A stretch of 64,000 nt of DNA. Origin: Gnetum montanum (lineage: Eukaryota; Plantae; Gnetophyta). The stretch's first letter is position 1, and every line of letters begins with the position of its first letter. Of the stretch, positions 3 through 64,000 are shown one piece after another. The notes under the pieces were generated by a model. That model did not search any database. It was given only the letters and a program-made list of their open reading frames with translations, and had not been told where the DNA came from. The stretch lies in NCBI GenBank assembly GCA_015680685.1, contig MNCI01002011.1:251066-315065 (forward strand). Reading direction: 5' to 3'. The position numbers and the translations under genes are program-made.

Positions 3-3000
3 AGAGATATTAACATAAACCTCATCCACTTAAGTTCATCAACGGATGACGCAGTCATCACCTCAACACAACAAACAATAGACAACTACAAAGGCATGAC
101 AAGATCCCTCAACATAGGAGCCGAAAATATCACCAAAGACCCATTGACCGAAACCCCCATAACCATTCCCGATGGGGAAATTAAAATACTAAAATTAAGC
201 ACATTACTAAAACCTCACCTAGCCAAGAACATTGAAGACGTGCTTAGGGAAAATATGAAAGCATTCGCTTGGTCTTATACAGACATGCCCGGACTAGATC
301 CCCGAATTGTCCAGCACAATATTATTCTGGACCCAAAATTAAGACCAGTAACATAGAAGGCACAAAAGGTTAAACCCGAAGTGGCATTAGCAGTTCGTAA
401 TGAGATCACCAAACTTTATCAGGCTGGCTTCATTCAAGCTATTGATTACACCGAGTGGGTATCCAACATGGTCATTGTTCTGAAGAAGAATGGGAGCATT
501 CGCTTAGGTATTGACTTTCAGGATTTAAATATTGCAACCATAAAAGATGATTTTCCTCTACCCAGCATCGATCAACTTGTTGACTCGACTGCTGGGCACG
601 CGCTATTATCTTTTATGGATGGCTTCTCGGGATACAATCAAATATGCATCAACCCGAGGCATTAGCTTCGGACAACCTTTATGACACCATGGGGAATCTT
701 TTGTTACACAATGATGCTATTCAGTCTCAAGAATGCTGGGGCCACGTATCAAAGAGCAATGACATTCATCTTTAGAGATTACATGTTACACTCGCTCAAC
801 GACTATGTAGACGAAATTGTGGTTAAGTCAAAAACATCGGAACAACATATACAAGACCTTGACCTGGTATTAAAACGCTGTTTAAAGTATGAATTGAGAC
901 TCAACCCAACAAAATGTGTCTTCGACGTCAAGACAGGAAAAATGCTTGGATTCATAGCCTCAGAAGTAGGGATACGAGTAGACCCCGATAAGGTTAAGGC
1001 CATAACAAACCTGAAACCACTAGGCAACCTTACCGAACTTCGAGGTCTACAAGGTAGATTACAGTTTATCAGGCGCTTCATAGAAAAATTGACAGACAAA
1101 CTAAAACCAATGAACCACCTGTTACGCAAGAACGTCCATTTCGAATGGACTCCGCAGTGTCAAGAAGCATTCGATAGCATTAAAATGACACTTTCCTGAT
1201 TACCCACGGTTTACCCATCTCAAAACGATAAACCATTTTACATCTACCTCGCTACTTCGGATTTGTCGATTGCGTCTATGCTTTGCCAGAAACAAGATGA
1301 CAGAACCGAAGTCTCTGTGTATTACTGAAGCCATGCATTAGTTACCTACGAGAAAAAGTATAACGACGTGGAGAGGTCTTGTTTAGCTTTGGTCTTTGCT
1401 TTGAGAAGATGGCGAAATTACCTCTTCCGTAACCAAGTTAACATAATTTGTAGAGATAATGTGCTCAGGGCCATCACAGGAAACATTTACGAAATGAGTC
1501 GAATAGCCCGCTGGAAAGCCATGATAGCTGAATTTGACCTGCACTACATAGCGCAATCATTAGTTAAAGGTCAAGCCATAGCAAGTCAAATGGCCATGTC
1601 ACCAATGCATGATCAAGTGACAATAGAACCAGAATTCCCGGATGAGGATATAAGCGCAATAGACATAGTGCCCAACAACTATGATGCCATTCTAAACTTT
1701 GATGGAGCGTCCACCTCTCGAGGGGGAAGTGCAGCCACTGTTATCACCTATCCCTCCTGGGAGATCCGACCCTTTGCTTATCGTTTCAACTTTCATTGTA
1801 CAAACAACATAGCAGAATACGAAGGTCTCCTTAGAGGTCTCGTGGCAGCATTGGCTTTAGACATCACACGGCTTGTGGTCAGAGGAGACTCGCAGCTGGT
1901 CATAAACCAAGTCACAGACGTCTATACATGTAAAGCCCAACATTTACAACCATATTGCAACCTGGCAAAACACCTAACGAGGTGATTCGAAAACATCGAT
2001 GTGCAACACATCTCTAGAAATGACAATACCATCGCAGACGCACTAGCCATCTTGGTATTAAACATATCGCCTAACATGTTCCACACGTTGCCAAGCTCCA
2101 TAACCAGTTGTGCCGAACCAATAACCGATACTCTTGACACACTGCGAATCGCATCTGTTAGTACGACACACGCCATAGAATGGTATGATGACATAAAAGA
2201 ATACCTTCTACGCGGCGAAACACCACGACATCTAACAAATGCACAAAAGGATGCAGTACGAAAATGTTCTAAGCAGTACACCCTAGTAGGGGACATGTTA
2301 TGTCATAGATCCTACGAAGGCATATTGCTAACATGCGTCAATAGTACCGATGCCCAAACCATTGTCGAACAAGTACACAACGGATTATGTGGAGCACACA
2401 TAGCGCCAAAATCCATGATGACAAAGATTAGACGCTTAGGCTATTATTGGCCACACATGGAATACGACTGCCTCTCCAAGGTCAAAACATGTAGTACTTG
2501 TCAAAAACATAGCAATCTAATACATGTCCCACCACATGAATTGCATACAGCCCAAATCACGTGGCCCTTTCAAAAGTGGGGATTGGACCTTATCGGCCCG
2601 ATAACACCCTCATCTTCTGTAGGGCATGGCTTTATCATAACCGCAACTAAATATTTTATGAAGTGGGTAGAAGCTGCTCCCCTTCGAAAAACTACATCTA
2701 AACATGTATGCAATTTCATTCTCGAAAACATTATAACCCGCTTTGGCATTCCCATGACAATCATCACTAACAACGGGCCACAATTTAGTAGCGCCGAGAC
2801 CAAAACCTTTTGTGAAAGTTTAGGGATCAAACACTTGTTTTCATCCCCTTATTATCCTCAGAGCAATGGGCAAGCAGAGGTGACGAACAAAACGATTTTC
2901 ACAATACTCAAAAAGATGCTCATCCAAAGCAAGCGAAGATGGCACGAACAATTGATATACGCATTGTGGGCATACCGTACTATACATCGAATTTCAATAG

Positions 3001-3373
3001 GTAAAACACCATATAGTCTTGTTTATAGTTCAGAAACTATTTTACCTTTGGAATTACAGGTACCATCTTTAAGGATAACACTTTCTGGACTCCTCGACGA
3101 CGGGTAAAACAATGATCTGCACATCAGATCGAATGGTATCAAAAACAACAACGGCAATGACATCGGCACAACACCCATAAGCGCCCTATCAAAGAAGGTG
3201 ACCTTGTACTTAAGGCAGGTTGAGAACACTCAGACAAATTCTCAACCAACCGGGAAGGGCCTTACTTGGTCATTAAAGCATTCGACAACGGAGCATTCAA
3301 GCTCGCTGATATGGAAGGGAATGAGTTTGCCAATCCAACCAATCACTTGTTCCTAAAACCATTCTACATTTGA
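3..3373 (+). pseudogene. pol: Tat pol pseudogene (RT, RNase H, additional archaeal-type RNase H, integrase with GPY/F tail); several in-frame stops
   Basis: RT: FAWSYTDMPGLDP, SFMDGFSGYNQI, YVDE (mutated YVDD). RH: ERSCLALVFAL. aRH: FDGAS, TNNIAEYEGL, GDSQLVINQV, HISRNDNTIADALA. INT: HNGLCGAH..CSTC, WGLDLIGP, YPQSNGQAE. Ends HLFLKPFYI* at 3371-3373. Confidence 0.95.
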
Positions 3374-3395
3374 GTAAAAGCTTAGGTACGTGCAA

Positions 3396-3762
3396 GTCCT
3401 GGAGTCACGACTTTAAACTGATACCACAGAATAGTCTTGGAGTCATGAATTTAAACTGATACCACAGAATAGTCTTGGATCATGACTTAAAATTGGTACC
3501 ACAGCTCGTCCTGGAATCATGACGATAAACTGATACCACACAGTGTCCACAATGACGATAAACTAGCACCCGTCAGGCACGACAGTAAACTACCACCGTC
3601 ACATTTATTAGAGTCCGCTAAGACTATAAACTATTTTGCCTCTTCATGGTCCGCTAAGACTAGAAACTGGCACTGCAGCGTCCACCACGACGCTAAATGG
3701 GCAACGTCCAACGGGTTATGACATAAAACTAACCCATGATAGTCCGCCAAGACCATAAATCG
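3396..3762 (+). repeat. Tandem array of 11 GTC-N6-10-GAC-NNN-AAACT units (Box-1/coremin xrRNA-like)
   Basis: Units start at 3396, 3434, 3472, 3508, 3545, 3572, 3613, 3649, 3680, 3706 and 3742, e.g. GTCCGCTAAGACTATAAACTA and GTCAGGCACGACAGTAAACTAC. The first units are ~36-38-bp tandem duplicates; later ones have unrelated spacers. Confidence 0.85.
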
Positions 3763-4829
3763 GCAAGTTCATCTCTGGTTCATCAACCCGCTACCACATT
3801 CAAACTTCATCAGAACCACTACATCGCTCGCCATCAGACAATCCCACCAATGTCGCTGCCACTCATATACAGTGCTTGAAATCACCTCCAATGTCTTTGT
3901 AATTGTGTAAGTCTAAGCTCGCTTATTCACTCATGGTTTTCTTGTTTCCTTAGAGTGATGTTTGCAGGATGACACCCAGAGGTTTTCGCACAAAAATGCA
4001 TTTCATCATAAGCAGCAAGATGGGACAATGTTCACAGCACGCATGGCAAGACTGAATCAAACCATTTGCTAGTACATCCCCATTTCTCAATACACTCCCT
4101 ATCTATTCCCCGATACACTTTACTCAGTCACACCTTTGATACACCCAGTACATCCAAAACTTTGAGCACGCCGTTGCATACTATAACACTTTGAAGCAGT
4201 TGCAACACATGACATAGCACTTGTACATGAGTATAGAATCAATGTAGAGTTTCTTCCCAAAGAAAAAACTCAAAGACCCTTGGCACTTCCCATACAAGCC
4301 CCAGGCAGGAAGGCAATCGTCTTAAAACCAAGTACTCATGTCAAAAATAATCAAAAAACATCCAGTTGCATAGCTTTGGCCCTCTACCAACAGGCTTCCC
4401 CTAAGAATTAAACAAGGGCCCTGTTCCTCCAAAGAATGTAACACATCCTCCCGTGGCTTTGGTCTTGCCAGCAAGTTCTCTTGAACATTACCCAAGAGGC
4501 TTGTTCCGCCAAAGGACGCACATTACACGTATGGATTCCAAGTTTGCTAAATAATGGCTATTGACAAGGATCAGCATGACACACACACACCAGAGCATCC
4601 CCTTTTCATCAAGCATAATCCCTTGGGCAATTACTAGTCCTCACAATCCTCGTTCTCCTACCAGTTACAAATTTCACTTGCCCAATCCCATGTACTACTA
4701 AACACGGTATGATGATGTCTAGTCAAGTGGCAACGGACAAAGTCTCTATCAAGTTGCTTATGGTGTTTTGCACTTCTTTGTCGACGCTTCTCGGGTCGAT
4801 TCCTCCAAACGTCAACAAAGAGGGGCCAA

Positions 4830-6043
4830 TGAAACACCACAAAATTTTGAGCTTAGTACTTGTCCAACACCAAGCGGGTCCCTGGACCCCCAGACGACCA
4901 CAGCTACATTTGGTGTCAAACACGGCAACTTCGGAGATCAGAGGCTTGATTTTCACTAAGTATGCAGTTCCAGCATATACGCCCAAGTGTGCTTTCCCAG
5001 CGTATACGCCCAGCGTAGACGCCCAGCGTAAACGTCCAGCGTATACGCTCAGCATACACACCTCACATGTACGCCCAGCAGGTACAACAGATACATATGC
5101 CCGACATGAAACCTTCAAAGACGACATGAAAACAGCACTACAGAGCGAGATTTGGCATAAGGCAACAACCTTCAGCGTATATGCCCCAGCGTATACGCCC
5201 AGCATCCATTAGTGTATACGCCTAGCATCCACCAACGTATACGCTCAGTGTATACGCCAGCGTCCACGACATCTACGCCCAAGTGCGCATACACCCAGCA
5301 CCTCCAGCGTATACGCCCACAGTCTATGCTCGCCATAGACAATGTATACGCCCAGCGTATACGCCTGGCAAATGTAACATATTGTACACTTGTAAATTTT
5401 ACACTTTTGCACCCGATCAATGTGCCACGTGTCTTCCAACCCAAGTCTACCATCAAAACCCTGTATAAAAGCTTAATTTTTGACGAAATCCAGGACGATT
5501 GGAAAATTCCCAGAGCACACCAAAGAACAGAGACACTGAGAACCAGAGCACAAAACTTTTTACGCTGGAAAAAACTGTACGCTGAGCATACAACCTCTAC
5601 ACTGTGCTTACAGTGTGAACCAGCTGCAATCATCCCTGCACCCACCAGGGCTTTCGTCTACCTTGTGTTCCACTCACAACTGCGTTTGACCAATGCATTG
5701 TCCTTTCATTTTGTAATGTCATTGTTACATTTTCTTTCCATAATCGTTTACAGTTTGCATTAATTATTGTACGTATTTTGTTTACGCCTGTTTACGTTTA
5801 CGTTCTGTTTGCATTGGTTACACTGTTTACGCCCGCTACGCTGTTTACACATAACCCAGCGTATAGCACTTCGGTATACGTTTGAGGAAATCCTTGTCTG
5901 ATCTGCGTGCGGACCACCCAAGGTACTCTACCTTCGTTCGTTCCAGCTCGCCCTCAGGCGAAGGTAGGATCTTCTGTGCGTGTCCAATGATCCCACGACC
6001 TCTGTTTCCTTCTAGCCGGAGACCGACGATTTCAGACGGTACA
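4830..6043 (+). repeat. 3' LTR of Tat1 (~1.2 kb)
   Basis: Starts TG just after the PPT. The start TGAAACACC is shared with the LTRs at 51624 and 37169 (-). Contains GCGTATACGC repeats and a TATA (TATAAAAG ~5464). Ends ..GGTACA. Confidence 0.85.
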
Positions 6044-7625
6044 AAAATAGATTAGATAGTGGGATTTCTTCCTCTTTGTTGTTCCATCACAACCCAGAAA
6101 AGTGGTTAGCAACCACATTCTCAACTTCCTTTTGATTTACCATTGTAAGATTGAATTCCTGTAAGATCACCAACCATTGTATGACATGAGGGCTCACCAT
6201 TGGCTTGTTCATCAAAAAGCAAATTGCGTTGTGGTCTATGTGTACAAACACCTTGTATCCAAGCACATAATGCCTGAACTTTTAAAGAGTAAATACCACA
6301 ACCATCAGCTCTTTTTCTATGATGGTGTAGTTTAGTTATGCATTCACAATGCTTCAACTAGTGCAATCGATGTAATATGGATGTTTCTTGTCATCCATCT
6401 ACATAAGCACAACTCCTAAAGCATAATTTGATACATTTTTCATAACATGAAATGGTTTGGATTAGCTGAGTGCTTGTAGAATTGGAGTTTCTACAAGTCT
6501 ATCTTTTAGCCATTGGAATGCTTTTTCACATTCATTGGTTTAGACAAATGAAGCATCTTTCTTGGTTAGTTCAACCAATAATTTTTTGATCTTAGAGAAA
6601 TTCTCTATGAATTTTTGATAATAGCCAGTATGTCCAAAGAATGACCAAACATCTTTGATGCTTTTTGGTTGGCAAGTAATTTCTTGGATGTCCCTTATCT
6701 TTTCAACATCTACCTCAATTCCTGCTTATGAGATTTGGTGTTCCAATACAATGCCCTCCTGGACCATCAAATGACTCTTTTTTCAATTGAGTTACAAGTT
6801 GGTTTCAACACATCTTTTTAGTACTTACTCAAGACGGTCTAAGGCTTACTCAAATGTAGCTCCATAGGTGGAGAAATCATCCATGAAGACATTCACATTG
6901 CTACTGATTTTCTATTGAAAAATGCTTAGGACTAGGTGTTGGAAAGTAGTAGGGGCATTACATAGACCAAAAGACATCTTATGACAGGCGAAAGTCCCTC
7001 AAGGACTCATGAACATTGTTTTGGTCTAGTCCTCTAATGTTATTTGGATTTGGTTATAGCCACTATAACCATCCAGAAAACTATAGAAGCAATGCCCAGA
7101 TATTATGTCTAACATCTGATCAATGAATGATAATGGAAAATGGTCCTTGAATGTTGCCATATTTAGTAGCCAAAAATTAATGCAAACCCACCATGTACCT
7201 CCTTTCTTTTGCACAATCACAAGTGGACTAATCGACTCACTATCCATAATGGGATAGATAAACCTGACCTTGAGGAGTTGTTTAATTTCCTCTTTGATGA
7301 TCTACTTCAATTTGTGGCTCAGTCACCTTTGTGGCTACCTCTTTGGCTTCATAATCAAGTTAGTGTAGATACAATGCTTGCATATCCTAGGATCAATCCT
7401 TGTGAGTTCAAGATATGACCAAGCAAAGGTTTCTGACCATTTTTCAACCACTTTTAATAGCATCTACTTTTGTTCTAGAGCAAGATTTTCATTGATTATT
7501 ACTAGCTTTCCATTTTTAAAGAACACATATTCCATGTTGGTAGGTAGAATTTTTAATGCAAGGGGCTCTTGTTTGAAATTTTTAGGAATTTCCAACTCTT
7601 CCCAAAAGGTATCTTCATTTGCATT
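6044..7625 (-). pseudogene. pol: RT/RNase H of element A (decayed)
   Basis: DSESISPLVIVQKKGG, KDHFPLSFIDQML, YSFLDGYSGYNQI, VFMDDFS (~6870-6890), RH end ENVVANHFS. Confidence 0.9.
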
Positions 7626-24499: not shown

Positions 24500-27400
24500 G
24501 ACCAAGCACTAATGAGGGCATCAAAAATAAATCATATAGGCTTTTTACTGAGTAGTCATATGCATATTCTACAAATGCACTCTTCTTAGGGGAGTTGAAT
24601 TTATCTAACACTTTCAATTCTAAGATGATGAGAACTTAAGTGATGCTTGCTAATAGCATTCTGATACTTGATGGGAATAGTAGCTAAGAGATAATAATCT
24701 TTTACATTAGTTTAGTAGATCTAATGTGATGTAAATAAAATTGTCTCTTGCCTTTCACATTAGTCCACATCTATGTTAAAACTTTTTGTTTGACTAGTCG
24801 ATAAATATGCTTAGGATTTTGTTGTATGTCCTCCCAAGAGATTCCATTTTCTCAACCATTGCATCCCTTGAAAATATCAACCATGGTCTCGTGAATCCTC
24901 AAGAATTGCTTTAGAGAATTGTCTTGCCTTAAGATATGCAAGCTATGAGTATATGTAATAAATTAGCACAAGGCTTCTGCTTCTAAAGGTAATAAATCAC
25001 ATTCACATAATAAAATTGAAAAAGGTGTTTTTACCTTCACCTTTAACACATTGAGAAGAAACGTTTTTTTCACTCTTTCAATATCTTTCCAAAGTTTAGC
25101 ACTGAGTCTAGGTTCTTAAACAACAAATCCATACAATATGGTAGAATATATCATAGTTTAAAATTTTGTTTTCTAACCTTCCAAGCCCAAAGGCCTAAAT
25201 CCTTACACTTGTTTTTGAAAGCATACAAAGCTTTGAAGCCTCCTACTATTTTTTTTCTTTGATGCACTTCCCCACATGTAAATGTTTGAATAAATGATAT
25301 TTTATTTGTATGTCAAAGTTATATTCTTCATTGTTGCTTTTCTAAGGTTTTATTTTAAGTATATATGAACTAACCCTTATTAGAGTTTTAAGTAGGAAAA
25401 TATGAGGTACCAGGTGGGTCATTGGTACATGATATGTCATTGGAGTTTAATTTATACATTTGATAAGTTAAGCCTTTACCATCATGATTGAGAATAAAAT
25501 TTGTAACAGAACCTTAGGTGGTATGAGCATCATTTAAGTATAGGTGAAGATCAAAATCATCATGTATTAAAGTTGTAATGAGGCATTGTGCTGGTTCTAG
25601 GATGTCTAATTTCTTAGGACGTGGTTGTATGGGTTTATAATAGGATTCGAATAGAGGTGGTAAAAATAAAATATCCACTATGATTTGATTCTCAATAGAA
25701 TGGTGTGAAAGATATGAAATATCAAACTTAGTAAGAAAGGTTTTCTCTTTGTCCATGCAATTGTTATCGCACAAGTTAGGAACAATTAAGCATAAAACAT
25801 TATCACAAGATATAACATAGACACTCATCCCTAGTAGATAATGTCTTCACTTTCTAAGTGCAAAGATAAGACCAAGGTAAGACTTCTCTCTAACTATCTT
25901 GTTTCATAATATGAGAATGAATAAAAGATGTAGTAGATAGGAAGATGAACTCTATCTTTGCATAATTGGAAAAGCATGATGATGATGGAATCTTCAAATT
26001 TGAATAAAAAAAGATAGAATAAGAGATTGAACTAAGGTAGATCAAATACTAGAAGATGGATTACATCAAAGGCTTTTTACCATTTTGAATCCCACTTGAA
26101 AGTGATGGATTTTTTGAGGAGAGGTAAGAGAGAATGAAAGTAATTAGTGAGATTATAAATAAAATGATAAATGAATTATAGATGACCTTGTAAGATGTGT
26201 ATTTCTTTAACGCATCTAGGTGGAGTAAGGTTTAGAATGACTTTGACTTTACCAAGATTAACTACAATTTCATTGGTTGAGACAAGAAACTCTAGCATCT
26301 TTTCAATTTCTACTCCAAAAATACACTTCTTTGGATTAAGTGATGGCTATATTGATTAAAATGAGTTAGAAAAATGTTCAGATCTCTAGGCTAACCTATT
26401 ACTATTAGATCAAATATGTAATTATTTACCATTTTGAATATCATATCACTAAAGATATATATAATTGCTCATTGATATATACATTCCATATTTTTGAGTC
26501 CAAAAAACATCTTTGTGTAGAAAAATGTTTCCTCAGGGTCATGAAACTAATATAACATTGATGCCTAGGATTGATTTGGATCTAGTTGTAATATGATAAA
26601 TCATCAGTGAAAGATAATAATGCATGTCTAGTGAGGGTATCTATGAGTTGCTCTATGTTACACAATGAAAAATCATCTTTGAGTATTACATTGTTGAGAT
26701 TGCAAAAATATATGCGCATCTTGATATATCTTTTTTTCTTGAAAGCCATGACCATGTTGGAGGCCTAGTTTGAGTAATCTATAAAATGGATTAATCATAC
26801 ATTGTATAGCTTAATAATCTCTTCTTTAATTACAAGAGCTAAATAAATGTTAATTTTTATAGCTTTTTGCTTAATTGATTTAGAGCTTTCCTCAAGGATG
26901 ATATTCTATTGAACCAAGTACATGTCTAATCCTAGCATGTTATCATATTCCTAAGCAAAAGTAATAGAGTTATTTTGTAATGAGTTTAAAATTGAGATTT
27001 TTAGGTTTTCAAGGAGGTTATGAATGATTGGAAGAAAATATAATATTATCATTAGTATCACTATCAAGGAATCCATCTACTTAGATCTCGAAGCATCAAG
27101 GTCTAGGTCATGATTTTAAGTTAAAGTAGTATCCTCCAAGTGGTTGAATTAGCTTTAGAGTTCTCACATGTGAGCACCATTTTTTTGATCTACATGGCTT
27201 AATTTAAAATCTCAACAATGGACTTATTATCTTAGTTTTTTATCCTTGTCATGAATTTGTACATCAAAACTAGGTTTTCTTGGCCTATAATATTGTATTT
27301 GATTAGATGTAAGTTCATTATTCTATTATCTATAATATAGATATATGTAGGATTGTAGGTCATATATTTGTGATGCTTAATTAATGGTAAACTAACAAAG

Positions 27401-28390
27401 GTTCATCAGTAATGGGATTTAAGATGACTTTGAAATTGTTACATACAATGTAAGTTCATTGAATATGATGGCAGTCTGGGGAAGAAAGCTATCCTCATAT
27501 TTACTATTAAAAGGAATATGTTTGTTCAATAAAGTTTAATGTAATTTGGATTTTAACATCAAGCCTTCATTCATCATTATATGAATTTTCAAAGATTTAA
27601 ATTATTAAGTGAACAATTCAATATCGCAACTTAATTTAAAAGAGTTGATTTGAGTAACAAATGAAAGATTATTGCTTAATAGAAGATTGAAAAATTCTCT
27701 TAACACTTTAAGATTTGAGAAATAATTATGACATTCATTTAGGATGTAATGCACTCTATGACCATGTCAAGGTGGTGTGACCTAAATAATGATGTAATTA
27801 ACATATAAGTTAGGCTAATATGTTGAACACCTTAATTTGGGGAATTTATTCCTTATCTTCTTCATCTGGAGTACTTCCCATAAGCCAAGCATTTGTTTTC
27901 ACTAACAAGCATACTTTTTTTATTTTTAACTTTAAAACCAAACCATATTTTAAAGGTCATTTACCTTATAATAATTTTACTTTTATCAACAATATTATCC
28001 AATTTCTAACATACATTGTAGGAACTAAACATTATTGTGATAAAAATACTAGCATCATTGTTAGTAGCACCATCATATATTTCTCACTTCTAAGCCCAAT
28101 GCTCATGAATTCATGTTGTTATTCTCTGTTCACTAATGTAAATATGAGATTTTTCATACTTAATTGATTGAGCCAAACTCTACATATATGAACATTTTGT
28201 TGATGCCTTACTATTATATATTTCCAACATTGTTTACATAACTTACATTTTTTCTAACATTTAAGTCTCTACTCATTTTCATAAGAGTGTCTGGGTATGT
28301 AATTTTTTTAACTCAACATTGAATAAAAAGGATAAAAGCTTTATAACTATCTAGAAATGTTTATAGGATAATGGTAGGTATCTTGGATTA
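24500..28390 (-). mobile_element. Highly decayed LINE (L1-like ORF2/RT) remnant; boundaries approximate
   Basis: Traces on the - strand in LINE RT order: YYRP (~27285), Q-GF..NDNI (~27045-27085), DFAKAYD-like (~26945), LLSFTDDL (26593-26622, cf. FADD). Confidence 0.5.
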
Positions 28391-28397
28391 TTGTTTA

Positions 28398-29990
28398 TGT
28401 GCATCAATTAACTTAGAAGTGGGGAGGAGGGTTGAATGAGTTATAAATTAACAAGTAAATTATAAAAGAAAAAACTAAAAATATAAAACTAACTGTTTAA
28501 ATATAATGGACTATCTTAAGCAATTGTTTAAATATAAAGCAATGTATGTAGTAAAGTTCACCATCTTAAGATCTACTATGAATTAATAGCTATGGTTGAG
28601 ACTACCACTATGATAGATCCTTAAATGTTACATACTTTCTTACATGGTGAACAACAAGATTGGTTTCTCATAAGACTCCCAAGGACCTCACAAGATCAAA
28701 AATGAATTATGATGCTCTCGCAAGATAGACTTACAAACCCCTTAGGGTAGAAGAAAATTGACAAACACTTGAACCCTTCTAGGTTGTGATGTAGATCTTT
28801 CCTTAGTGAGATTCTACATTTTGCAAAGCTTCAAGGATTATATTAAGAATGAGATTATAGGATGGATGATTCTACAAATCATATATACAAAAGATATGTA
28901 AACACTAGGATAATATAATAAATCAAATAGCAATCCCTACATCTAAATCTAAGCATGCATGATACAAAAATAAGAGAGTAATAGATTAGATCAACATGTA
29001 CACATGGATGATTCAAAAAGAGTTGAAAACTTGGAAAATGATGTAACAATGGTGGTGCAGCTTTTAACAATCTTCCAACCCTTTTAAGATCATAGCAAAA
29101 ACAAGATGTTTATTCCAATGAGGTTAAGCTAATGATTATCTTGCATTACTTGAAAGATCAAATTTTGAAACCATTCGTTAATAATTCTCTCCTCCATGAA
29201 AGTTTCGCATGAAGAATTGGAGTTTGGGAAATGGCTATACATAGCATTTTTTATTTCCTTCAGTGGCTACTTAAGACATCAAGACATCTCATTTGAAGCT
29301 TGGATGTTTACACTGAGAAGGTTGAGCCTCAGGTGGAATGTTTAGAACATGCTAGAACATCTAGCTTAACATCTAGGTCAATTCTCATGGAACATCCACA
29401 TTGAGGTTGGGACACCCATCCTCGGTCATGGAACATTCATAATCTAGAACCTTTGTGATGAGGCTTGGAACATCTAGGCTAGGTGAAAGATAAACTATGA
29501 CCTTTGTTTTCTCTTAGCTTGAATGTTCACCATGAAGCCTAGACATATGGGGTTAAGAAAAAATAATGTTGACTTGATCAATCCTTACCTTCATGCATCT
29601 CAAAATCCTTGATTTACATTCCTTAACCTTCACTTTGCTCAAGTGCTTAGCAACTTGGTCAATACTTAAAATACAAGCTCAACCAAACACACTTATTTAT
29701 TGTCTATTTCTTAGACAAAACATGGAATAGATCAATAATCTCTCTCTTTTTGGTAATATCTAAAAACTTGAGAATGAGTGAGTAGTACAAAATCTAAAAA
29801 CATAAAATATAGAACTTGAAAAGATAAAATACATAAATAATATAAAGATAAAACATATGAAAGACATGAGATAAATAAAATATGGAAATTATGACAATGT
29901 ATGAACATTAAGACTAGAGCCCATTGACATAATATCCTCATTCTCTCTTTCTTTCTTTTTCACATCATCTAAAAAGATGGAAAGATTTCC
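28398..29990 (-). mobile_element. Truncated SIRE/Maximus-like Copia 3' end: LTR 28398-29737 plus upstream PPTs
   Basis: On the - strand: U5 motif ATTCAACCCTCC..CTTCTAAGTT at the LTR end, PPT ACCAAAAAAGAGAGAGAT at 29738-29753, and a second PPT-like tract at ~29940-29965. Similar to 35010-35260. Confidence 0.7.
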
Positions 29991-31732
29991 ATATGTACTT
30001 AATTTAAGTCCTTAACCTATTATCTTGAAGGATTATGACCTTCCTCCTCATCATAATAAGTACTATGAGCAAGAGACTTTCCATTTGAATCCATAGGCTC
30101 AAGTATAATTTTCTAGTACCATCATTAATGAAGCTTCTCTTTGAAACCTAACCTCAAAGTCCCAACTAACTAAAAGACATAAGTCTCATTAGAAGAATGA
30201 ATTTGTTAATAAGTATTTGACATTGAAGAATAAAATAAACTATCCATGGCCCCATAGTCAAAGGAATCATTAATTATTCTCTAGCTCTTGGAAGTTAACT
30301 TCCTTTCAACCTATATCTTTTGCTGGTCCTCATGTGGGTAATGAAGCTGATCCTCATGGCCCTACTACTTCCCCTAGCAATATACTTCCCCTACATGCAC
30401 TAACTTCTCATCTAAGTTCTTTTTCATGCCTAAATCATAGCCCTTGGATAGGCCAACATTAGAAGCATGAGCATGAGTAACATGCTTCTTTCACTAAATA
30501 GGGATTCCAATTGGATCCTTCTCTAAAATGAAAGGCGGTGTTGACCTTTTGGTTTGTCAAAAATTTAGAAAATTAAAAATGTGAAAAAATGTATTTGTAT
30601 TACCTTAAAAGTTTAAGGATAGACCAAGAACATGAAGACATTAGGACAATAGCACAATCAAGAGCTTTAATGTATCAAGACAGAGAAAATCCTAAGTTAG
30701 AAAAATAGCTACATCAACATGACAACAAGACCCAAGACTTCAAAATAAGAGGTATGTTGGGATGACAATATAAGAGCTAGGATACAAGATAAGTCTACGA
30801 GCCAAATGAAGATGTTTTGGGAACTACCCAGATGTTGAAATGTCAAAGCAATGATTCAAAGTTCAATGTGCTTGCAAGGTAGACATATCACATTAGTAGT
30901 AGACGTCTAACTCTTGGAAAAGACATCTAAGGGTAGACGTCTAAGGGTATATGTCTTTCCAAAATTGACAGTTTTGATAGAAAGATATCTTCACTTAGAA
31001 TTAAACATCTCAAATAGCCATTATCTAGCTATTGGAGAAATTCTAAGGGTTTTTGGAAGCCTAAAGAGTATAAAACAAAGTGGAATTCATGAGAAAGAAG
31101 AAGAACCATTTATTGAATATCTATCCTTGGCTACTCCAAAAGTAAATTTTCTTGGTTATTCATTGTTTCATCATTGGTAATGTGTTGTATGTGCTGAGAG
31201 TCATATTACAAGAAATTTGTAATTTGAGCTACACTCTCTCCTTAATTCTTTTGTTCTTTCTTATTAGCCCTATGGGGTTAATGTACTTCTTATGGGCAGG
31301 CATCTTCATTGAGCTTGTCAGGACCTTGAGAGGTTGAGTGGGTTTGTAATGATAAAACATTCTAGTGTGAAGCTTATGTTTGTAAAGGTTGTGGAATCCT
31401 TTAAACCAATATTTAAGCTTATTGGGACCTTACGGGGTTGAATGATTTCATGGCAATGAAACACTCCAAAGCGGAGCTCAAATCTTGTAAAGGTTGTGCT
31501 GCCCTTCAAAATACATTTTTGAAGTAATAAAGTCTAGAGGTGTGCATGGATTCTACCCTCCAAGTGTGGATGTACCCAAGTTTGGGAACCACATAAAAAT
31601 TATGTTTGATTTTGGTGGCTACAATGATTTAAATTAGGAAACTTATTCAACCCCCCTTCTAAGTTCTTGATCCACAAGTGGCATCAGAGCCTAGTATTCT
31701 TGGGTTTGAGCATAATAACTCAAGAGTGAGTG

Positions 31733-32760
31733 ATGGAAGGAGGATCATACATGAATTTACCAATGTTCAATGAGGTTACCTTTATGTGCTAGAAGATTCA
31801 AATGTAATAATTCTTTAAGTATATAAGGTTCTTAGTTTAGGAATTTATCTTGGATGGATGCACTCAACTCATCAGTAGCATGTTGGGTAGCAAAGATAAG
31901 ACAAGAGGTAAGCAATATAAACATTTAAATTTTGATACCTCTTCTATGAAATGTTGGATATGTTGTGGAAGAGGCCATATGGCCTTTGAATACCCCAATG
32001 TTTACAGGTTGTAAGAGAAAAGGTATAGTGAAGAATGGAGAAAAAGTAACATCTATATAAGTTGGGATGATGAAGAGGAAATAAGAAATACACCCAAAGA
32101 TTCATATCTTTCATGTATAGCCCTAAAAAATCTAGAATCTATTAATGATTCTATCTCTGATGATGAAGCTAAAGAAGATGAGACTTCTTTGAAAGAAAGG
32201 TATGAGCTACTTTGTAATAAGGTAATTTCCTTTCCAAGATTATGTAGCAAAATGAAAAAGGCCATGTATACTAAAGAACTAGGGATAGCTCAACTTAATA
32301 TAAAGTGCTCAAATCTTAAGAAGGAAAACTCAAACCTAAGGGTTGAGGTAGAAAAGCTAACCATTTCCCATGAGCATATTAACAAGGATCTTGAAAATTT
32401 GAAGCTCATCAATGATAGGTTAACATAGGAGAAGGATACTCTACAAATCATGTTGGGACAAAGTGGAGATCCAAATAATGACATAGAACTAATAAGTCAT
32501 TCCCACTATAAGACATCTACTTGTACTTCATCAAATACAATGTATACACCTAGGCTTGCTCATGTAGCTAAAATGAGAAATAGTATGTGTTTTCATTGTG
32601 GTAATTTTAGGCATAAGCAATCTTATTGCTATTTACAATCAAGCATTATAAATTGACTACATGGTCTTATCAAAAAAAGCCTAGAAAGTATGACTTGTAG
32701 GTTAGAAAGGTTTGGAGGCCCAAGGTAAGAAAGCTAGAGAAAGAATTTAGTGACTCAAAA
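31733..32760 (+). pseudogene. gag: SIRE-type gag remnant with two zinc-knuckle relics and a coiled-coil extension
   Basis: MEGGSYMNLPMFNE.., CWICCGRGHMAFE (~31952), coiled coil LKKENSNLRVEVEKL, CFHCGNFRHKQSYC (~32588). Confidence 0.75.
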
Positions 32761-35491
32761 AAACATCTTCATGTTAAAAAAGGAAAAGATCATATGCATG
32801 CTATGGAGGTACTCTATGATAAAGGACCTCATCCTAAACTCCCTTAATCATGTTCATACCCAAAAGTAACCAAGGTAAGTAATGGTAAGTATAACTATAA
32901 TCAATATTCCTTGACTTGATGAGATTAGACTAGGTTGATTTATTTTTATGCTAGCATTTAGAACAATGGTTGAATGGAAGCTATTTAAAATCATTGAATA
33001 CACAAAGAAATTTCCACTTGGTCTTGCAAATTGTTGAGCTATAATGACCTTCTTCTACTACTTTTAATGTTTTTTGTTGATAAATTATGTTCTTAACTAG
33101 AATGTATTGGTTTCAAGTGGTTTAAAGCACTTGATTGTAATTCATGGACCAAAATCTCTTTGCTGAATGTTCATTGTTATTTAAACATATGTGTCTTATG
33201 TTCCATACTCTTAACTAATTTATGATATGGAATTGTTTCTTCCTTGTGAAATCATAAAGTCTAATTATTTTTACAGGTTTTTGATGTACAGAAATTGAAT
33301 AAAGGCAACATTTTCAAAAGGAATTCCTTAAGTATATGAATTATTTGCTATCTTTATCATAAGGTACTACTAACAGGAGGTCTTATTTTCAAAAGTTTCC
33401 AAACTTGATCTTGATATGACACTGCAAATTTATGGACATTTGATGAGGACATCACCTAACCCTTGTGGTGTTTTTCCATGTTTGGGGATGTTTTGAACTT
33501 ATTTTGATGTGTTTGGAAGGTTTCAAGGGAGATGGGGACTTTTTTGGAGGTGTCTGAAGGTTCCAAACTTTAACATGAGCATCTCTAATTTTTTCCCTAG
33601 TAGGATAGATGTCTACTCTAATAATTAGACATCTCAACTACATTCAAGACATCTACTATTTTTTCAAGATGTCTAGTACAAATTCCAATGAATGAATTAC
33701 AATAGATGGAAATCGTGATGCTTCTATGATCTTTTACTTGTTGACCTTCTTGAAAGAAATTCCTTGCAAACAAATTACTTGAAGATCCTAAAAGGCTAGA
33801 GGGGAGATAACCACTTTCTACAATAGATGGTTCAAAAGATGGGACATATATGCAGGTGGAGCATCAATGTAGGGTAAGTATTGAGTGATTCTCTCAAAGA
33901 TATGATATCTTAATTGCAAGCTTCCAATCTCTAGCACCTATATCAAAAAACAAACAAGGATGAACATATTCATTCGGTAATGTTTTGAAGATCAAAGAAG
34001 AAATTTATTTATTAATTTTTAGAATCTTAACCTAAAGTTTGTCTTTCTTGGTGAAAGCTCTTGAACTCTATATGTTATATTAACTTGTGAGCACTATATT
34101 AAGGATTTAATGGTTCATGTCTGACATTTTATATTCTAAGAATGTATCATTGTAAGTATCTAGGATCCTTATTGCAAGTATAAACTATGTAGTACTCACC
34201 AAAGAGTTCTCAAGAACCTTTAATTATTTTTTGGAACTAGAAAAGGTATTCATGCTATCTTTTGGTAAGGTTTTTAAGGTAATCTTATAAATGATAAGTT
34301 ATATATGTGTTGATATTTTCTCTCAACATGGTTATCATAAGTTAGTTTTTGAACTTCTTGATAAGGAGATGGTGGATTATTTTTTATCTATTTCTTAATA
34401 ATTGATTGTACATATATTTACTCTCCTTGGCATGAAATTGTTATATATTTTGAATTTGAATGATGAGTTTAGAAAGTTTTAATGATCTTTTTCACAATAT
34501 TGGGAATAGATGAAGACCAAATGATGTGTCTTGATTTGTATCATTAACAATCTTCATGCATATTTTTGGTTAGCATGGATTGTTATACAACTCTGATCAC
34601 TTGTGAAGTTTAAGCCCTATGAAAGGAGAAGTATATTGGATGATTATCCCGATATCATGAGATATTTTATTACTAATGACTTATTGGTTCAAAGATAGTA
34701 TACATGATCTTCAATGCTCGGACTTTGAAATTCGACCTTTGGATATCAACTAAAAGGCTTAGGTTCATTGTGCCTCATTATGTCTAACTTTGTTTGTGAT
34801 TAGATAAAGGGGAATTCTTAATGAAATTTGGTTTTTTCTTCATTAGCCTTATGAAATCAATGCTAAAGGATGTGTACTCTTTAACTAATATCCATCATGT
34901 TTTCTTCCTTAGCTAAATGTTTGTATCTCTATGGTATTGTCATATGATGTTATCAAATTTTACCTTATGAAACTTTATTAAGGATGTTTGGATAGGTACT
35001 TTTCATGATCCCATCCTTTTGGGTGTTGTCCAAAATGGAGGAGAATTTTGTGACATTATTCATGCATACTATATGATGTTTCTCTTTTTAAGATGCATAC
35101 TATATGATGTTTCTCTTTTTACTATATATCTTTGATGATAGGTTTGTGATATGTCCAATGCATTGTATTTTGCTATATGAAAATGTTTATGCTTTTATTG
35201 TTATGGTATTAGGCTCACCCAATTTCTCAAGTTTTGGAAATCACCAAAAATGGGTAGATTTTTGACCTTTTGGTATGTCAAAAACCTAGAAAATGCATAA
35301 TGTGGAAAATGTATTTGTATTGCCTTGCAAGTCTAAGGGTAGACTGAGAGCATGATGAGAGAGCGACAATAGCACAATCAAAAGCTTAAATGTATCAAGA
35401 CATTAGATTAGGACAAAGAGAAAATCCTAAGTCAAAATGAGAGTTACATTGAGATGGCAAGAAGATCCAAGACTTTAAAATAAGAGCTACA

Positions 35492-37169
35492 TGTAGCAAC
35501 TAAAAACATCAGTGGCTGGAATGCCAAGGGGTCCACGAGCACATAGTTTGGCCCTGAGTTGACATGAGGGCCTACTGAAGGTGGAGATAAGGTGCCCTAA
35601 ATGGTCTTGTCAACAAATAAGAACTTACCAAATGTGATGCCAAATGATGCTAAGTGTTAAGTAGTGTTCGAGGTGTCAGTGATGTCAATGGGGTGAGCGT
35701 AGTCAAGGGTTTCAATGCAAAACAAAGGTACCAACATGTGAGGACCACTACCCAAGCATGGCTATGGATTAGAACAATGAAAAATGCAAGTAAAACTACT
35801 AGAAATGTAAAGAAAGAGAGCAACAGAGAACTGAACACCACCCCAAGTGGGGTTGAGCGTAGTTAACTTTAGAAGGGATGAGAAGATATGTGGTGTATAA
35901 CAAGTGCAGTGGATAGCATAGTCATAGTCTCGGGGGTGTTTGGCCATGAAGACTGAAGTTCTACCATAGTATCTATGCCTATCGAGTTGGCCGCTGCGAT
36001 GAGCAATGGGCTGCGATCATCCATGGTGTCCTATGGTGAGCTACGATGGTGTGTAACCTCGCCAAATGCTAACCCAAAATTTGCAAATGTCTTGAATTGC
36101 CAAAATGCCAAATGTGCTTCAAATTTTCCAACCCCAAAAACATTGAGAGCTAGAGTATTTATAGGCCTAGGATTAGCGTGAAATGTGAATCAACTACCAC
36201 GTGGTTGTGGGATGGTTGGAACTATGTCACATCCAACTATGCTCTCCACTAAGGCTAGTGATGTTATGCTTTGCTATGCTATAAAAAAATTTATGAGACC
36301 ATGAGACTGTGACTATGATACCAATTGCATGTGCATGTACCGAAAAGATTACAATGTACTTGAAAAAATGCAACTTTGGAGACTATGCTCTCCATTGTCT
36401 TGTGTGGGGTCAAGTGTAGTTACAATTTGGGGCCAAGAAAGGGGTACAAAAAAGATACATTTTTGCTAAGTATGCTTGCCAAGGATGAGTTAGAGCTAAG
36501 GTGAATGTTGGTGCTATGTTATGAAGGCCTTTAGAGGCTATTCTAGCTAACTATGCTTTGGACTAAGGGAGAGCATAGTCCCACACTTGGAAACATTTTG
36601 CAAAAAGTGACTATGTGTTGACTATGCTCTCTTTGGGAGGCTAAATACACTCCCAATTGGGGTCAAGCATAGTCCTAGAACTTTTCAAGACTTGCAGAAA
36701 CTGGCTTCTAGTTGACTATGCTTGACTATGCTCTAGGGTAATGAAGAGCGTAGTCTCAACACTACAAAAATTTCTGCAAAACTAGGTCTTCCATGCTGAC
36801 TACGCTTGGCTATGCTCTAGGGTAGTGGAGAGTGTAGTCATAGCACTTATAAAATTCTACAATGGTTGGCTTAACACTTAGAAAAATTTGCAAAACTCGC
36901 CTTTGCGCTAACTACACTCTAGGGTAGTGGAGAGCATAGTTCCAACACTTGGAAAAAATTTGCAGCTTCTTGCTTCGCAATGACACTTAGGAAAAATTGC
37001 AAAAAATAAATTTTTGGAGCTAATTACACCCTCCACTAGGTTGACTATGCTCTAGGAAAATAGAGAATGTAGTCTAAGCACTTTGACAAATTTGCAAAAA
37101 GTGGCCTCATGTTGACACTTAAGCAAGTTTGCAGTCAAGACATTGTAGCTCGAATTTGGTGGTGTTTCA
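35492..37169 (-). mobile_element. Solo LTR of the Tat2-related family inserted in the SIRE 3' LTR
   Basis: Perfect TSD CTACA (35487-35491 and 37170-37174). - strand start TGAAACACCACC. - strand end CCAGCCACTGATGTTTTTAGTTGCTACA matches 53417-53444. TATA at ~36158. GACTATGCT/AGCATAGTC repeats. Confidence 0.9.
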
Positions 37170-37805
37170 CTACATTGGGATAACAAGATAAGTGCAAGAT
37201 ACAAGAGAATTATACAGGCCAAATGAAGATGTTTTGGGAACTATCAAGATGCTAAAATGTTAGAGCAATGATTCAAAGTTCAATGTCCTTGCAAGGTAGA
37301 CATCTTGCATTGGCAACAAATGTCTAACTCTTGGAAAAGACATCTAAGGGTAGACATATAAGGGTAGATGTCTTTCCAAAATTAGTAGTGTTGATAGAAA
37401 GATGTATTCACTTCAAATTAGACATCTCATATAGCCATTTGATGAATTCCAAGGGATTTTCAAAAGCTCAAAGTGTATAAAACAAAGTGGAATTCATGAG
37501 AAAGGAGAGGAATTATTTATTGAATATCTATCCTTGGCTACTCCAAAAGTGAATTTTCTTTATTCTTCATTGTTTCATCATTTGTAATGTGTTGTATCTA
37601 CTGAGATCCCTCTTGCAAGGAATTTGTAATTTGAGTTACAATCTCTCCTTAATTCCTGACCTGTTTCTTATAAGCCCTACGGAATTCATGTGCTTCTTGT
37701 AGGAAGGCATTTTTGTTGAGCTTGTTGGAACCTTAAGGGGTTGAGTGATTTTACAACAACAAAACACTCTAGTGTGAAGGTCACATCTGTAAAGTTTATG
37801 GGATT

Positions 37806-40800
37806 TTTTGATGCCAACATTGTCAATGCTAGGCATGGAACTATGATTAACAAGTGTAATCCCTTGGCATCAAGCACAAAGAAAGTTAATTTGTACAAGC
37901 ATGTCTTGGGGCCTGATTCATAATGGCAAGCTTGTGGCAATGGTTACATTGCCATGTCATGATGACATGGATGTAATCACCTAGGTGGTGTAGAAAATAG
38001 ATTACATAATAGCTACAAAGGTGGCACAACCAATGGTGGTGGTTTCGGAAGTTACATGTGTTATGCAGAGATGTTGGACATGGTTGTAACCAATGGAGAA
38101 CATGGTGGAGAACATGGTAATAGTGGCAAGAGTTATGAAGGTGGTGGGAAAAGTGGGATGTGATGGATGCTATGCTAGGTGAGTGGCGGTAACTGTTGGT
38201 GTGGAAGTTATGATTGCAGTAACCAATGGCAAGTGGTAACCGAAACTGACATGGGACATGGCCATTTAAAACTACTAGAAAAGTTGCTATAAAAGAAGAA
38301 TAGAGGTGGGTAGCAAAGGAAAAACATTGGGTCTAGCCTCTCTCTCACATTGGAGGCCAACCTCTCTCTCACATTGGGGACCAACCTCTCTCTCATCGAG
38401 GTCCAACTTCTCCTCTCTTTAGCAACATGCGTGATAGATAGAATGGTGTGCACACTAGGAAACAAAGGCTATGAATAACGTGCTTATAGCACACAAAGTG
38501 GACAGTAGTGACATATCTCTCTCTCTCTCTCTCTTCTCCCTTTTCTAGCAGATGGTGGTAGATAGAACTGTGAATTGTAATGGTAGCAGCAACACATAAT
38601 GATAGTAAGCGATGCAATCAATAGCAGAGCAGATCTCTCTACCTCCCCTCACTCCTGTAGGTACATCAGTAGATAGTGCAGGTATGGAGCAACAGTTAGC
38701 AACTACAACAAGGTTCTTTCTTCTTTCTCTCTTCAGCAACAATGACATGCGTGGCATGCGCCAAAAGATTTTGATAGCAATAACATGATAGGCATCAAAA
38801 GTTGTAGGGTGCATGAGGTTCTATTTTTCCTTCCTCCCAAAGATGGTCAATAGGCATGTGACTCATGGTAGTCAACAAGTGATGCAGACAATGCATGGCA
38901 AATGGTGGCATGTGCAGTAGGCTCTTGCGTGGTTAACATCAGCAACTACAGCAGGTGATCTCTCTTCCACCAACAGAGGCCAACGGGTGGCAACATTCCC
39001 ATAGTGAGAATGAGCTATCTCTCCCTCTCAGTGGTTGCAACGTGTGCAAATGATGGAAAATAGCATGATAGTGGTAGACACATCAATTGTTCGGCCAATA
39101 GTGGTGGAACATATCTCTCTCTCTCTCTTCCTCTCTAACGATGATCATGGTCTTCTTGCCCAACAGTGGGCACCACTAGTAGCAACAATAGGAACTAGGA
39201 AAAAGTTTAAATTTTCTAGTTATCTACTATATTTTCATGAAGTCTTGAAGTTTAATACAGTTATCTAATTTAAATTCCCTTAATTTTTTCTAGTTTTCTT
39301 TCCTTTTTAAATGCCACATAGCCCTCTCCAACTAAGACTATTCCCAGGTTTCCATACCTATATGGGAGGTGTCCTAGGTAATAGTCTCCTCAAATGAGTT
39401 TTTTTTTCTTGGTGCTGGTGCATCCAAAATTTATGCATCAATAGCTTTTTGACACTAGAAGGAGGGATATTTTTCAGCCTTTGTTTTCCCAATTTGTGAA
39501 ATATTAATTTTTGTTGTCATTTTTCTTATTCTTAATCCTATTTTGTTCCTATTTCAAAACTATTGTTTCCCCTAAATTTTATTTTCTTGTACTTATTATT
39601 TAAAACACTTGTCTTCAACCCCTTTATTTTTTACCTTTTTTGAAAAATTAATGCTTCCTATTTTTTGAATATTACCATTGTCATTACTAGAATCCTAAAC
39701 CTTCTTTTCCTAGTTCTGATTTTGGCAATCCTTACCTATGTCCTAACTTTTTCCTCTATCTTCTACATCTCCTTTTAAGATTTCTATGGTTGTGCTATTC
39801 CTTACACTTGCATGCAATTTCTAGTTTGGGGGCTAAGTGTTAATACCATCGCCCATGCTAAGCACGGGGCCATGATCAACAAGTGTAATCCCTTAGCACC
39901 AAGCACAAAGAAAGTTAATTTCTACAAGCACATCTTGGGGCTCAATTCATAATGGCAAGCTTATGGTAGCAGTTACGTTGCCACACCATGATGGCATGAA
40001 CGTAATGGTCCGAGTGGTGTAGAACGTGGGTTACGTAATGACCGTAGAGGTGGCATAACCAACGGTGGTGGTGCTGGGAGTTACATGCATTACGCAAAGA
40101 TGTTGGACATGGTTGTAACTGATGGTGAACATGGTAAAGAACATGGTGATAGTGGAAGGAGTTACAAAGGCGGTGGATGAAGTGGGATGTGATGGCGATT
40201 ATGCTAGGTGAGTGGTGGTAACTATCGGTGTGGAAGTTACGCTTGCAATAACCAACAATGGGTTGTAACCGAAACCAACATGGGATGTGGGCATTCAAAA
40301 CCACCAAATGAGTTGCTATAAAAGGAGAATAAAGGTGGGGAGAAAAGGGAAAGCATTAGGGCCAGCCTCTCTTTCACATTGGGGGCCAACCTCTCCTCTC
40401 TTTGGTGGTGTATAACAGTGGCAATCACAACAACAATGGTAATGCATGGTAACTATAGCCAGCAACAGCATGCGACCTCCCTATGTAGCATGTGATAGGA
40501 GGGTGAGCTCTTGACAAACATAGACAAGTAGACAATGGTGCATCAACATTAGTAGGGTGTGTGGTAGGCTACAAGCAATGTTGGCTACAGTGGCATCTAT
40601 GGTGATGAGACAGCACAAACTGGCGGCAACAGTAGGGGCTAGGGAAAAGTATAAATTTTCTAGTTACCTATAGTATTTTCATGAAGTCTTGATGTTTAGG
40701 AAAATTATCCTATTCAAATTCCCTGATTTTCTAGTTTAATTACCTTTTTTTAACGTCACATGGCCCTCTCCAGCTCAAACTATTCTTAGGTTTCCGTATC

Positions 40801-62849: not shown

Positions 62850-62858
62850 TATTTATAG
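62850..62858 (-). promoter_or_regulatory. Candidate TATA box for the antisense gene
   Basis: CTATAAATA on the - strand, with a TGGGCCC site at ~62978 upstream and LTR-type AGC(G/A)TAGC motifs nearby. Confidence 0.45.
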
Positions 62859-63044: not shown

Positions 63045-63245
63045 GTCCACAAAGATCTTAAACTAGTGACCTTAGTTCTCGAACTCCACCTGTTAACAAT
63101 CTACTAAGACCTTCAACTAGCAACCTTTATTTACATTCTGATGTACACTGTAGCATGAGTACAGTCCACCACTATCTTAAACTGGCAAAGTTAATGTCCC
63201 TTGCATGTTCCAACCCATTCACGGTCTGCCAAGACCTTAAACTAG
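63045..63245 (+). repeat. Second array of Box-1/coremin-like motifs (4 clear or degenerate copies)
   Basis: GTCCACAAAGATCTTAAACTAG (63045), ATCTACTAAGACCTTCAACTAG (63099), GTCCACCACTATCTTAAACTGG (63164), GTCTGCCAAGACCTTAAACTAG (63224). Confidence 0.7.
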
Positions 63246-63334
63246 TAACTTGCGAACTTGGCCGAATAGTTGACAATTATTTCATGCTTCATTATTACTT
63301 TGCAAATGTTATTACGTGCTATTGCTACAAATAG

Positions 63335-64000
63335 GTATCACTTGACCTAGCTTTTTCTTATTGTGGCAAGTTGAACAAAATGGCCATGCAACGTGATCTA
63401 CATTCACTTTTAACCTTGACAAGTCCTCATGGCAAGCTTGCAAGACATCTAAACTTAGAGTCAATAGACTGGGAATCATCCACTTATAACATTGTAGCGT
63501 CCCTGAAAACATCCCTAGATTGGCCCAAACATTTGATCCAAGCCCTAGACTTAGAGGTTGGGGATGTGACTGAGGACCCCCTCATCGAAGCACCTATAAC
63601 GACATCCAGGGGGAAAATAAGGACACGAAAACTTAGCTCCCTCCTAGATCAACAAATACAAAAGGATGTATCTAAAGTCCTTCAAGACAACGTCAAAGTG
63701 TTCGCGTGGTCCTATAATGACATGCCGGGCTTAGACCCATGGCTAATACAACATAACATTATCTTGGACCCACGTATCAAGGTAGTCAAAAAAAGGCTCA
63801 CCAAAAATCGCACTAGCTGTACATGATGAAATTACCAAGCTATATCAAGAAGGCTTCATCTGCATGATCGATTACTCGAAGTTGGTATCGAACATCGTTG
63901 TAGTCTCTAAGAAAATAGGAAGAATACAAATTTTTATAGACTTTCAGGATCTAAAGAAAGCAACGACTAAAGATGATTTCCCACTACCAAGTATTGATCA
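63335..64000 (+). pseudogene. pol: Start of Tat pol (pre-RT linker plus RT N-terminus), runs off the window end
   Basis: EDPLIEAPI..VFAWSYNDMPGLDPWLIQHNIILDP..IDFQDL..KDDFPLPSID, homologous to positions 3-570. Confidence 0.9.

Follow-up and report, generated by a model that had tools for sequence, protein, structure and literature searches.

The RNA motif variously called coremin, Box-1 or xrRNA-C is known from beny-, cucumo- and other RNA viruses; in the literature surveyed no source other than RNA viruses is given for it, and its structure has yet to be solved. As set out in the available text of two reports (PMC6546385, PMC10520033), it consists of a hairpin of 3–5 bp that is closed by a pyrimidine–purine pair, with a loop of the form YGAD or YGNNAD (loops of 7–8 nt being tolerated), an essential segment A16–A20 (AACUA), and a small second hairpin, which is required for resistance to the exonuclease Xrn1 in vitro (PMC6546385, PMC10321173). 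Six-base loops of the YGNNAD form are published Xrn1-resistant variants, CGCAAT being one that was tested and found resistant, and resistance was lost in one test of a six-base loop ending in C (PMC10520033). At the last position of the essential segment, the substitution A20U abolishes resistance and A20C retains it (PMC6546385, PMC10321173). There is also a Watson–Crick form, xrRNA-WCC, represented by SPlV5, Hit1 and Hit2, which needs a G in loop 1 and the pair G8–C18 (PMC10321173). The same report describes a coremin mutant, PK18, with C in loop 1 and the pairs A7–U19 and G6–C20, that stayed Xrn1-resistant. Since PK17 and the four frameshift pseudoknots of BWYV, MMTV, IBV and SRV-1 were not resistant (PMC10321173), a pseudoknot is by itself insufficient.

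Amongst plant LTR retrotransposons, the ENE triple helix of Arabidopsis Evade (Copia93) comes closest as a precedent, being likewise an RNA-stability structure in a retrotransposon 3′ UTR. As described in the available text of PMC12501189, it differs in acting on the 3′ side, where it prevents deadenylation by binding the poly(A) tail, in its unrelated fold, and in belonging to a Copia rather than a Tat element. The Tat clade is defined by a dual RNase H, has the gene order RT-RH-aRH-INT in a layout of the Ogre/Retand type, and carries a long 3′ non-coding region with tandem repeats, which the text of PMC6317226 available to us describes merely as repeats. Our literature search, within the main texts of openly accessible papers, found no report of coremin or of any xrRNA from a plant retrotransposon; in a 2025 host-factor review, as far as its text was available, Xrn1 is mentioned solely for yeast Ty1 (PMC12786077).

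The window, by which we mean the whole stretch of 64,000 nt of Gnetum montanum DNA that was analysed, opens with the decayed pol of a Tat LTR retrotransposon (3..3373, + strand), in which Pfam recognizes RVT_1, RT_RNaseH, RVT_3, Integrase_H2C2 and rve in that order, corresponding to reverse transcriptase (RT), RNase H, a second RNase H of archaeal type (aRH) and integrase. The position of aRH between RH and integrase is that of Tat. The frame is interrupted by stops and frameshifts, and the terminal TGA (3371–3373) closes an integrase C-terminus that is 48% identical to the end of an intact homologue; the best homologues of the integrase are 40–58% identical to it. Further downstream, a polypurine tract (about 4820–4829) is followed by the 3′ LTR from about 4830 (together 4820..6050, + strand), as indicated by the sequence, a depth peak at 4776–4842 and loose read ends at 4830–4831. 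The right end of the LTR is uncertain and probably lies at about 6043–6089. Inside the LTR, at 4996–5370, there is an unrelated tandem repeat of 13–23 bp, of the CCCAGCGTATACG type.

Between pol and the LTR, at 3396..3764 on the + strand and sense to pol, lie eleven tandem units of the form GTC-loop-GAC-NNN-AAA(C)T, which start at 3396, 3434, 3472, 3508, 3545, 3572, 3613, 3649, 3680, 3706 and 3742. The first begins 22 nt downstream of the pol stop, as a preliminary description of this DNA had stated, and the three units quoted in that description are exact to the letter. The strict pattern GTC-N4-12-GAC-N3-AAAC is matched by seven of the eleven, as against an expectation of 0.009 (at most 2 in 5000 Markov simulations), and a relaxed pattern by all eleven (0.036 expected). 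A fuzzy search of the 64-kb window gave ten matches, all of them on the + strand and all within two arrays, this one and a second described below. The loops are 6–11 nt long, the upper limit being one more than had been given. GAC and AAACT are both present in only seven units. The GTC/GAC stem is found in ten units, often lengthened by 1–3 pairs, unit 2 having GAA for GAC in this copy; the spacer ends in AAACTA in four units, in AAACTG in four, and is damaged in three (AAAT in units 3, 9 and 11). A search of 3300–4000 against Rfam, with E up to 10, gave no matches. A hammerhead ribozyme was considered and rejected, as GAC and AAAC are set apart by three extra bases relative to the consensus.

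Units 1–4 (3396..3540, + strand), with loops of 9–10 nt, are a young 38-bp tandem duplication with 83% matches, so that the array comprises eight distinct units; copy-number variants of this block are present among the family's DNA contigs and RNA reads. Four elements are invariant in all eight distinct units, namely GTC, the A last but one in the loop, GAC and AAA, each identical to its counterpart in published coremin (PMC6546385), and the first loop base (loop 1) is C in seven. The loop ends in A, T or C, never in G, and in the remaining columns of loop, NNN and linkers pairwise identity is 0.18–0.57. An invariant core set amongst diverged columns supports the proposal that selection has acted on an RNA element. 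The alternative is a neutral minisatellite, in which slippage in the hypervariable 3′ UTR of Tat elements multiplied a motif that had been captured or had arisen by chance. It draws on the young duplication, on the frequency of tandem repeats in non-coding parts of Tat elements (PMC6317226, in the text available), and on the nested folding of 3374–3790, which is no better than that of shuffled sequences (z −1.48), although this test is uninformative for pseudoknots. It does not sit well with linkers at chance identity beside invariant core columns or with the restriction of all ten fuzzy matches to the sense strand; nor, as will be seen, with five unlike loops that each match their own tail and the recurrence of the motif, with a changed stem, in a lineage only 46–48% identical in integrase. 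We regard the neutral explanation as very improbable, and as largely refuted already.

Loop and tail sequences change in step between units, with Watson–Crick complementarity retained. With the register fixed by following the loop backward from its last-but-one A and the tail forward from U19, the A–U pair shared by all units omitted and units 1–4 counted once, 25 of 33 positions in the first array are paired, compared with 18.9 for permuted tails (p 0.003); for both arrays the figures are 33 of 45 and 25.7 (p about 0.001), and sliding the register by 1–3 leaves only 4–18 of the 45 paired. In units 1–4 the loop TGGAATCA can pair with the tail TGATACCA, the same pairing having one mismatch in unit 4. 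The six-base loops of units 5–9 (3545..3702, + strand), CACAAT, AGGCAC, CGCTAA, CGCTAA and CACCAC, have tails complementary to them at 2–4 of 4 positions; in unit 8, for example, GCTA pairs with TGGC, including one G–U pair. Unit 10 (3706..3735, + strand) has an 11-nt loop in which GGGTTA can pair with the tail TAACCC at 6/6 positions, and in unit 11 (3742..3764, + strand; loop CGCCAA, tail CGGC in this copy) GCC pairs with GGC. When only the ten six-base-loop units are considered, 72.5% of stem 2 is paired and three of its four pairs vary on both sides; their covariation score was reached by 16 of 500 shuffles and is thus modest, so that the strong signal comes from the unlike long loops. The fold predicted from these pairings is a compact H-type pseudoknot, in which stem 1 (GUC/GAC) would be followed by a one-base loop, C, stem 2 would be formed by the loop with the tail, its first pair joining the last-but-one A of the loop to U19, and AAAC would cross stem 1.

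Several features are shared with coremin, as the latter is described in the sources available. Both have a GUC-loop-GAC stem closed by C–G, three free bases and AAACU; C is the first and A the last but one base of the loop in both, and the units are in tandem, sense, and placed closely behind a stop or between frames. It had been cautioned that the loops are longer than the viral tetraloop; for the six-base loops this caveat falls, because YGNNAD loops of that length are known and Xrn1-resistant (PMC10520033, in the text available). Three of the six six-base loops (CGCTAA twice, CGCCAA) fit that consensus as they stand. Some features count against resistance: the loops of units 1, 6 and 9 have C as their last base, four units have G at position 20 (AAACTG), the published substitutions considered there being A20U and A20C, and only unit 7 of the eleven satisfies both the published loop and the AAACUA spacer consensus in this copy. 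The loop of unit 6 begins with A, and five units have loops of 9–11 nt, outside the published tested range. The 32 nt behind each unit folds mostly as the first stem of the next unit or as a weak hairpin, and the lack of a separate second hairpin behind most units counts against a roadblock; viral arrays with 26–27 nt spacing have the same look behind their units.

Unlike published coremin, the first array lies in a nuclear LTR retrotransposon, has up to eleven copies rather than the 2–5 of the viral contigs examined, and has no separate second hairpin behind most units; unlike the viral six-base-loop form, its loops (6–11 nt) pair in Watson–Crick fashion with the tail. The canonical loop–spacer stem, including A–U19, is shared with xrRNA-WCC and PK18 as these are described in PMC10321173. 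Since loop 1 is C rather than G in seven of the eight distinct units and G8–C18 is lacking, they are not filed as a subtype of xrRNA-WCC, from which they differ also in a stem 2 of 4–8 bp instead of 3. PK18 is the closest tested RNA, with matching geometry, the window units having the longer stem 2. Taken as a coremin-like variant, the array lies in a new class of host element, a nuclear retrotransposon, which would be a new host class for xrRNAs as well.

Some viral material allows a direct comparison. A tandem-pattern search of viral contigs gave 38 contigs with arrays of 2–5 units, the commonest loop being CGCAAT. Of 32 distinct arrays, 22 start no more than 30 nt behind an ORF stop, an ORF being a frame of at least 150 codons and four of the 32 having no such frame upstream. 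Loop–tail pairing is absent from 45 distinct viral six-base-loop units (44 of 135 positions, 44.8 when permuted). The kinship with Box-1 that had been suggested is supported by the core, the tandem form and the stop-proximal place, and does not extend to the Watson–Crick pairing of the window units. The retrotransposon form of the knot also exists in some viruses: in two short viral contigs, L039 (1905, 2144) and L045 (2418, all on the motif strand), which were selected by pattern and so give no independent test, six-base-loop units fully paired to their tails lie 4 and 8 nt behind an ORF stop. The viral contig set contained no relative of the Tat integrase and no match to the pattern of units 1–4 or to that of the Tat locus L196 (see below), and an Rfam search of 20 viral loci gave no match at the motif, only tRNAs and two weak hits. 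Separately, in mostly large viral contigs that are probably from DNA viruses (L047–L166), the long-loop Watson–Crick form of the knot is enriched: at least five consecutive loop–tail pairs occur in 18 of 115 distinct hits, as against 5.4 when permuted. Several of these knots are preceded by a −10-like box, a terminator-like run or a tRNA gene.

The family to which the element belongs is very abundant, with 26,018–45,017 short contigs matching 2900–4900 in each of four DNA runs from four organisms. Its copies were viewed through short contigs and reads, and reads may cross-map among units 1–4. Amongst the 40 best-supported variants in each of the DNA and RNA comparisons (there being 460 and 541 more), 18 distinct variants lie inside the array. 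Fourteen of those listed fall at structural positions (a stem, loop 1 or core base), and all fourteen keep or improve the pair or core base; the other four are in NNN or linker. Such variants include C at 3449, G at 3549, G at 3592, G at 3634, C at 3698, and C and T at 3760–3761, the last two, in unit 11, being present in most family reads. Unit 2 has GAC in about 96% of family contig depth, and the loop at the position of unit 5 is CGCAAT in 21 of 22 oligo-dT reads and in 10 of 20 reads from the RNA run X16. The window copy has decayed from a better-formed family state; the family variants are no independent proof of selection. Such a high-copy family, matched by tens of thousands of contigs in every DNA run, is a natural covariation set for the pairing loop and tail bases, and thereby gives direct access to the question of how coremin folds.

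The second array, at 63045..63250 on the + strand, consists of four decayed six-base-loop units at 63045, 63099, 63164 and 63224, and belongs to a related Tat element, whose RT frame it precedes by about 90–290 nt. The start of the RT region of this element (63335..64000, + strand) is 44% identical over 116 aa to the pol start of the first (E 3e-35). For Tat elements, the available text of PMC6317226 describes no array that lies ahead of RT and follows a minus-strand coding-like stretch. This stretch, within 58350–63330, is decayed and has an acidic repeat; it gave no useful Pfam match, and only unnamed plant clusters, with low recognition, resembled it. Two further features of the second element were noted from sequence: a TATA-like box near 62855 on the minus strand, and a pyrimidine-rich run ending in AG near 63375, a candidate splice acceptor before RT.

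The comparison set for other Tat elements was the best 80 of 427 Tat-integrase loci in metagenome contigs. The strict GTC/GAC pattern gave no array in these 80. A structure-based search was more productive, with three sense matches no more than 600 nt behind the integrase, in two loci, L196 and L217; the controls gave one antisense match in the same zone, one sense match upstream, and 0.03 in shuffles. In 62 of the 64 loci with at least 150 nt downstream, there was no match on the sense strand in the 600 nt behind the integrase, a point against the exonuclease roadblock considered below. L196 has about seven units from 18 nt behind the stop and L217 about five from 11 nt, several of them damaged; the stem is CTC/GAG, and the loop–tail pairing is built around a bulge. 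The integrases of these loci are 48% (L196) and 46% (L217) identical to that of the window element, which was unplaced in a quick tree in which L196 and L217 did not join it. The recurrence may reflect either one old origin with many losses or separate captures. An Rfam search of 11 Tat loci gave no match.

A different tandem structured unit, about 15–30 nt behind the integrase stop, was observed in L174–L178, L181, L183, L224, L226, L237, L239 and L243 (also in L244 and L188). It has nested stems that vary between copies, an AAAA bulge and a GAAA-capped tip, and is present in 2–3 copies, often with a second cluster 550–700 nt further on. These loci form one integrase clade in the quick tree, and the seven that were searched gave no Rfam match.

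What might the array do? During co-translational decay, XRN4 trails the last ribosome up to the pol stop. On balance, we lean towards the reading that the array is a roadblock to 5′–3′ exonucleases. Element RNA that had been decapped or cut would be degraded by XRN4 from 5′ to 3′ until the enzyme stalled at the first intact knot, the further copies serving as backups and each following stem possibly acting as the second hairpin for the preceding unit. Stalling would spare the 3′ UTR together with the R part of the LTR. At the second array, ahead of RT, the RNA spared would be uncapped and have its start shortly before RT; alternatively, this second array would insulate RT from scanning ribosomes. 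The support that is directly seen comprises the position, the strand, the invariant core, the in-step loop–tail complementarity, transcription of the same strand as pol, and the reappearance of the motif both in a second element and in a Tat lineage that is only distantly related. If true, this would be a 5′-side defence against RNA decay to set beside the 3′-side ENE of Evade, and would give the tandem repeats behind Tat pol genes a testable function.

The RNA evidence comes from four runs that carry the species label of one of the DNA runs, are fragmented libraries, and were used mostly to the extent of 2–26% of each run. In run X16, which is stranded, the strand that carries 97% of pol depth also carries 93% of the depth over the array. 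No pile-up of read starts was found inside the array in any of the four, which is a weak test with fragmented, partly read libraries. The ratio of array to pol depth is 1.8, 2.4 and 3.4 in three runs, compared with 2.6 for DNA, where contig depth gives a rough baseline; the fourth run, X18, is too thin. Since there is no pile-up and the RNA ratios bracket the DNA ratio, no abundant RNA starting in the array is seen. Both results count against the roadblock reading, and the predicted accumulation of 3′UTR+LTR RNAs found no backing in these runs, weak as the test is. The further suggestion that the spared RNA accumulates and serves as a silencing decoy, which presupposes the roadblock, has a parallel in ncRNA3 of BNYVV, which is made by coremin and affects silencing suppression and movement (PMC10520033, in the text available); with neither enrichment nor discrete starts in the four runs, and nothing else that supports it, we think it quite improbable.

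The absence of a nuclease product from the four runs is in keeping with another possibility, namely that the pseudoknots act on ribosomes: behind the pol stop they would block read-through, scanning after termination or re-initiation, while in the second element they would precede the RT frame and keep scanning ribosomes off it. The link of arrays to stop codons is tight. In the text available, coremin is described as stalling ribosomes about five-fold during scanning and as stimulating −1 frameshifting (PMC10520033, PMC10321173), and the Watson–Crick type does so without a second hairpin (PMC10321173). Eleven copies would, however, not be needed to stop one ribosome, and there is no reading frame downstream of the array. 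Added to this is that terminating ribosomes seldom get 22 nt beyond a stop. We consider it unlikely that this is what the array is for, and it should be noted that the ribosome and nuclease roles are compatible and not exclusive.

Alternatively, the units might be a structured RNA signal that shares the coremin fold and has some other job, such as packaging, dimerisation, export, protein binding or enhancement of translation from the 3′ UTR. In other Tat lineages this slot holds tandem structured RNAs of a different kind, which suggests that the slot itself has a function, and the same knot is found in probable DNA viruses of prokaryotes, which lack XRN4. The invariant bases are, however, those whose mutation abolishes Xrn1 resistance (PMC6546385, in the text available), and no result here points to another partner, so that this too appears to us an outside prospect, on a par with the action on ribosomes.

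A wider version of the roadblock reading can be offered only tentatively, as something that is possible and that we would not expect to hold in full. It is that Tat elements run a virus-like programme of nuclease-defined subgenomic RNAs, in which coremin-type knots flanking pol would let XRN4 carve out a stable 3′UTR–LTR RNA and an uncapped RNA starting just before RT. The arrays behind Tat/Ogre pol stops would then generally be interchangeable batteries of structured nuclease-blocking RNAs, with coremin as one and the unrelated hairpin unit of L174–L243 as another.

Two further features of the run X16 lie between the array and the 3′ LTR. At 3905–4240 coverage is mainly opposite to the strand of pol and the array (150 as against 41 at 3905–3971); this signal is antisense RNA of family copies, and stops about 140 nt short of the array. 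At 4689, about 140 nt before the 3′ LTR, 25 molecules start, with a depth of 84 beside them, and this is the only pile-up in 2900–4900.
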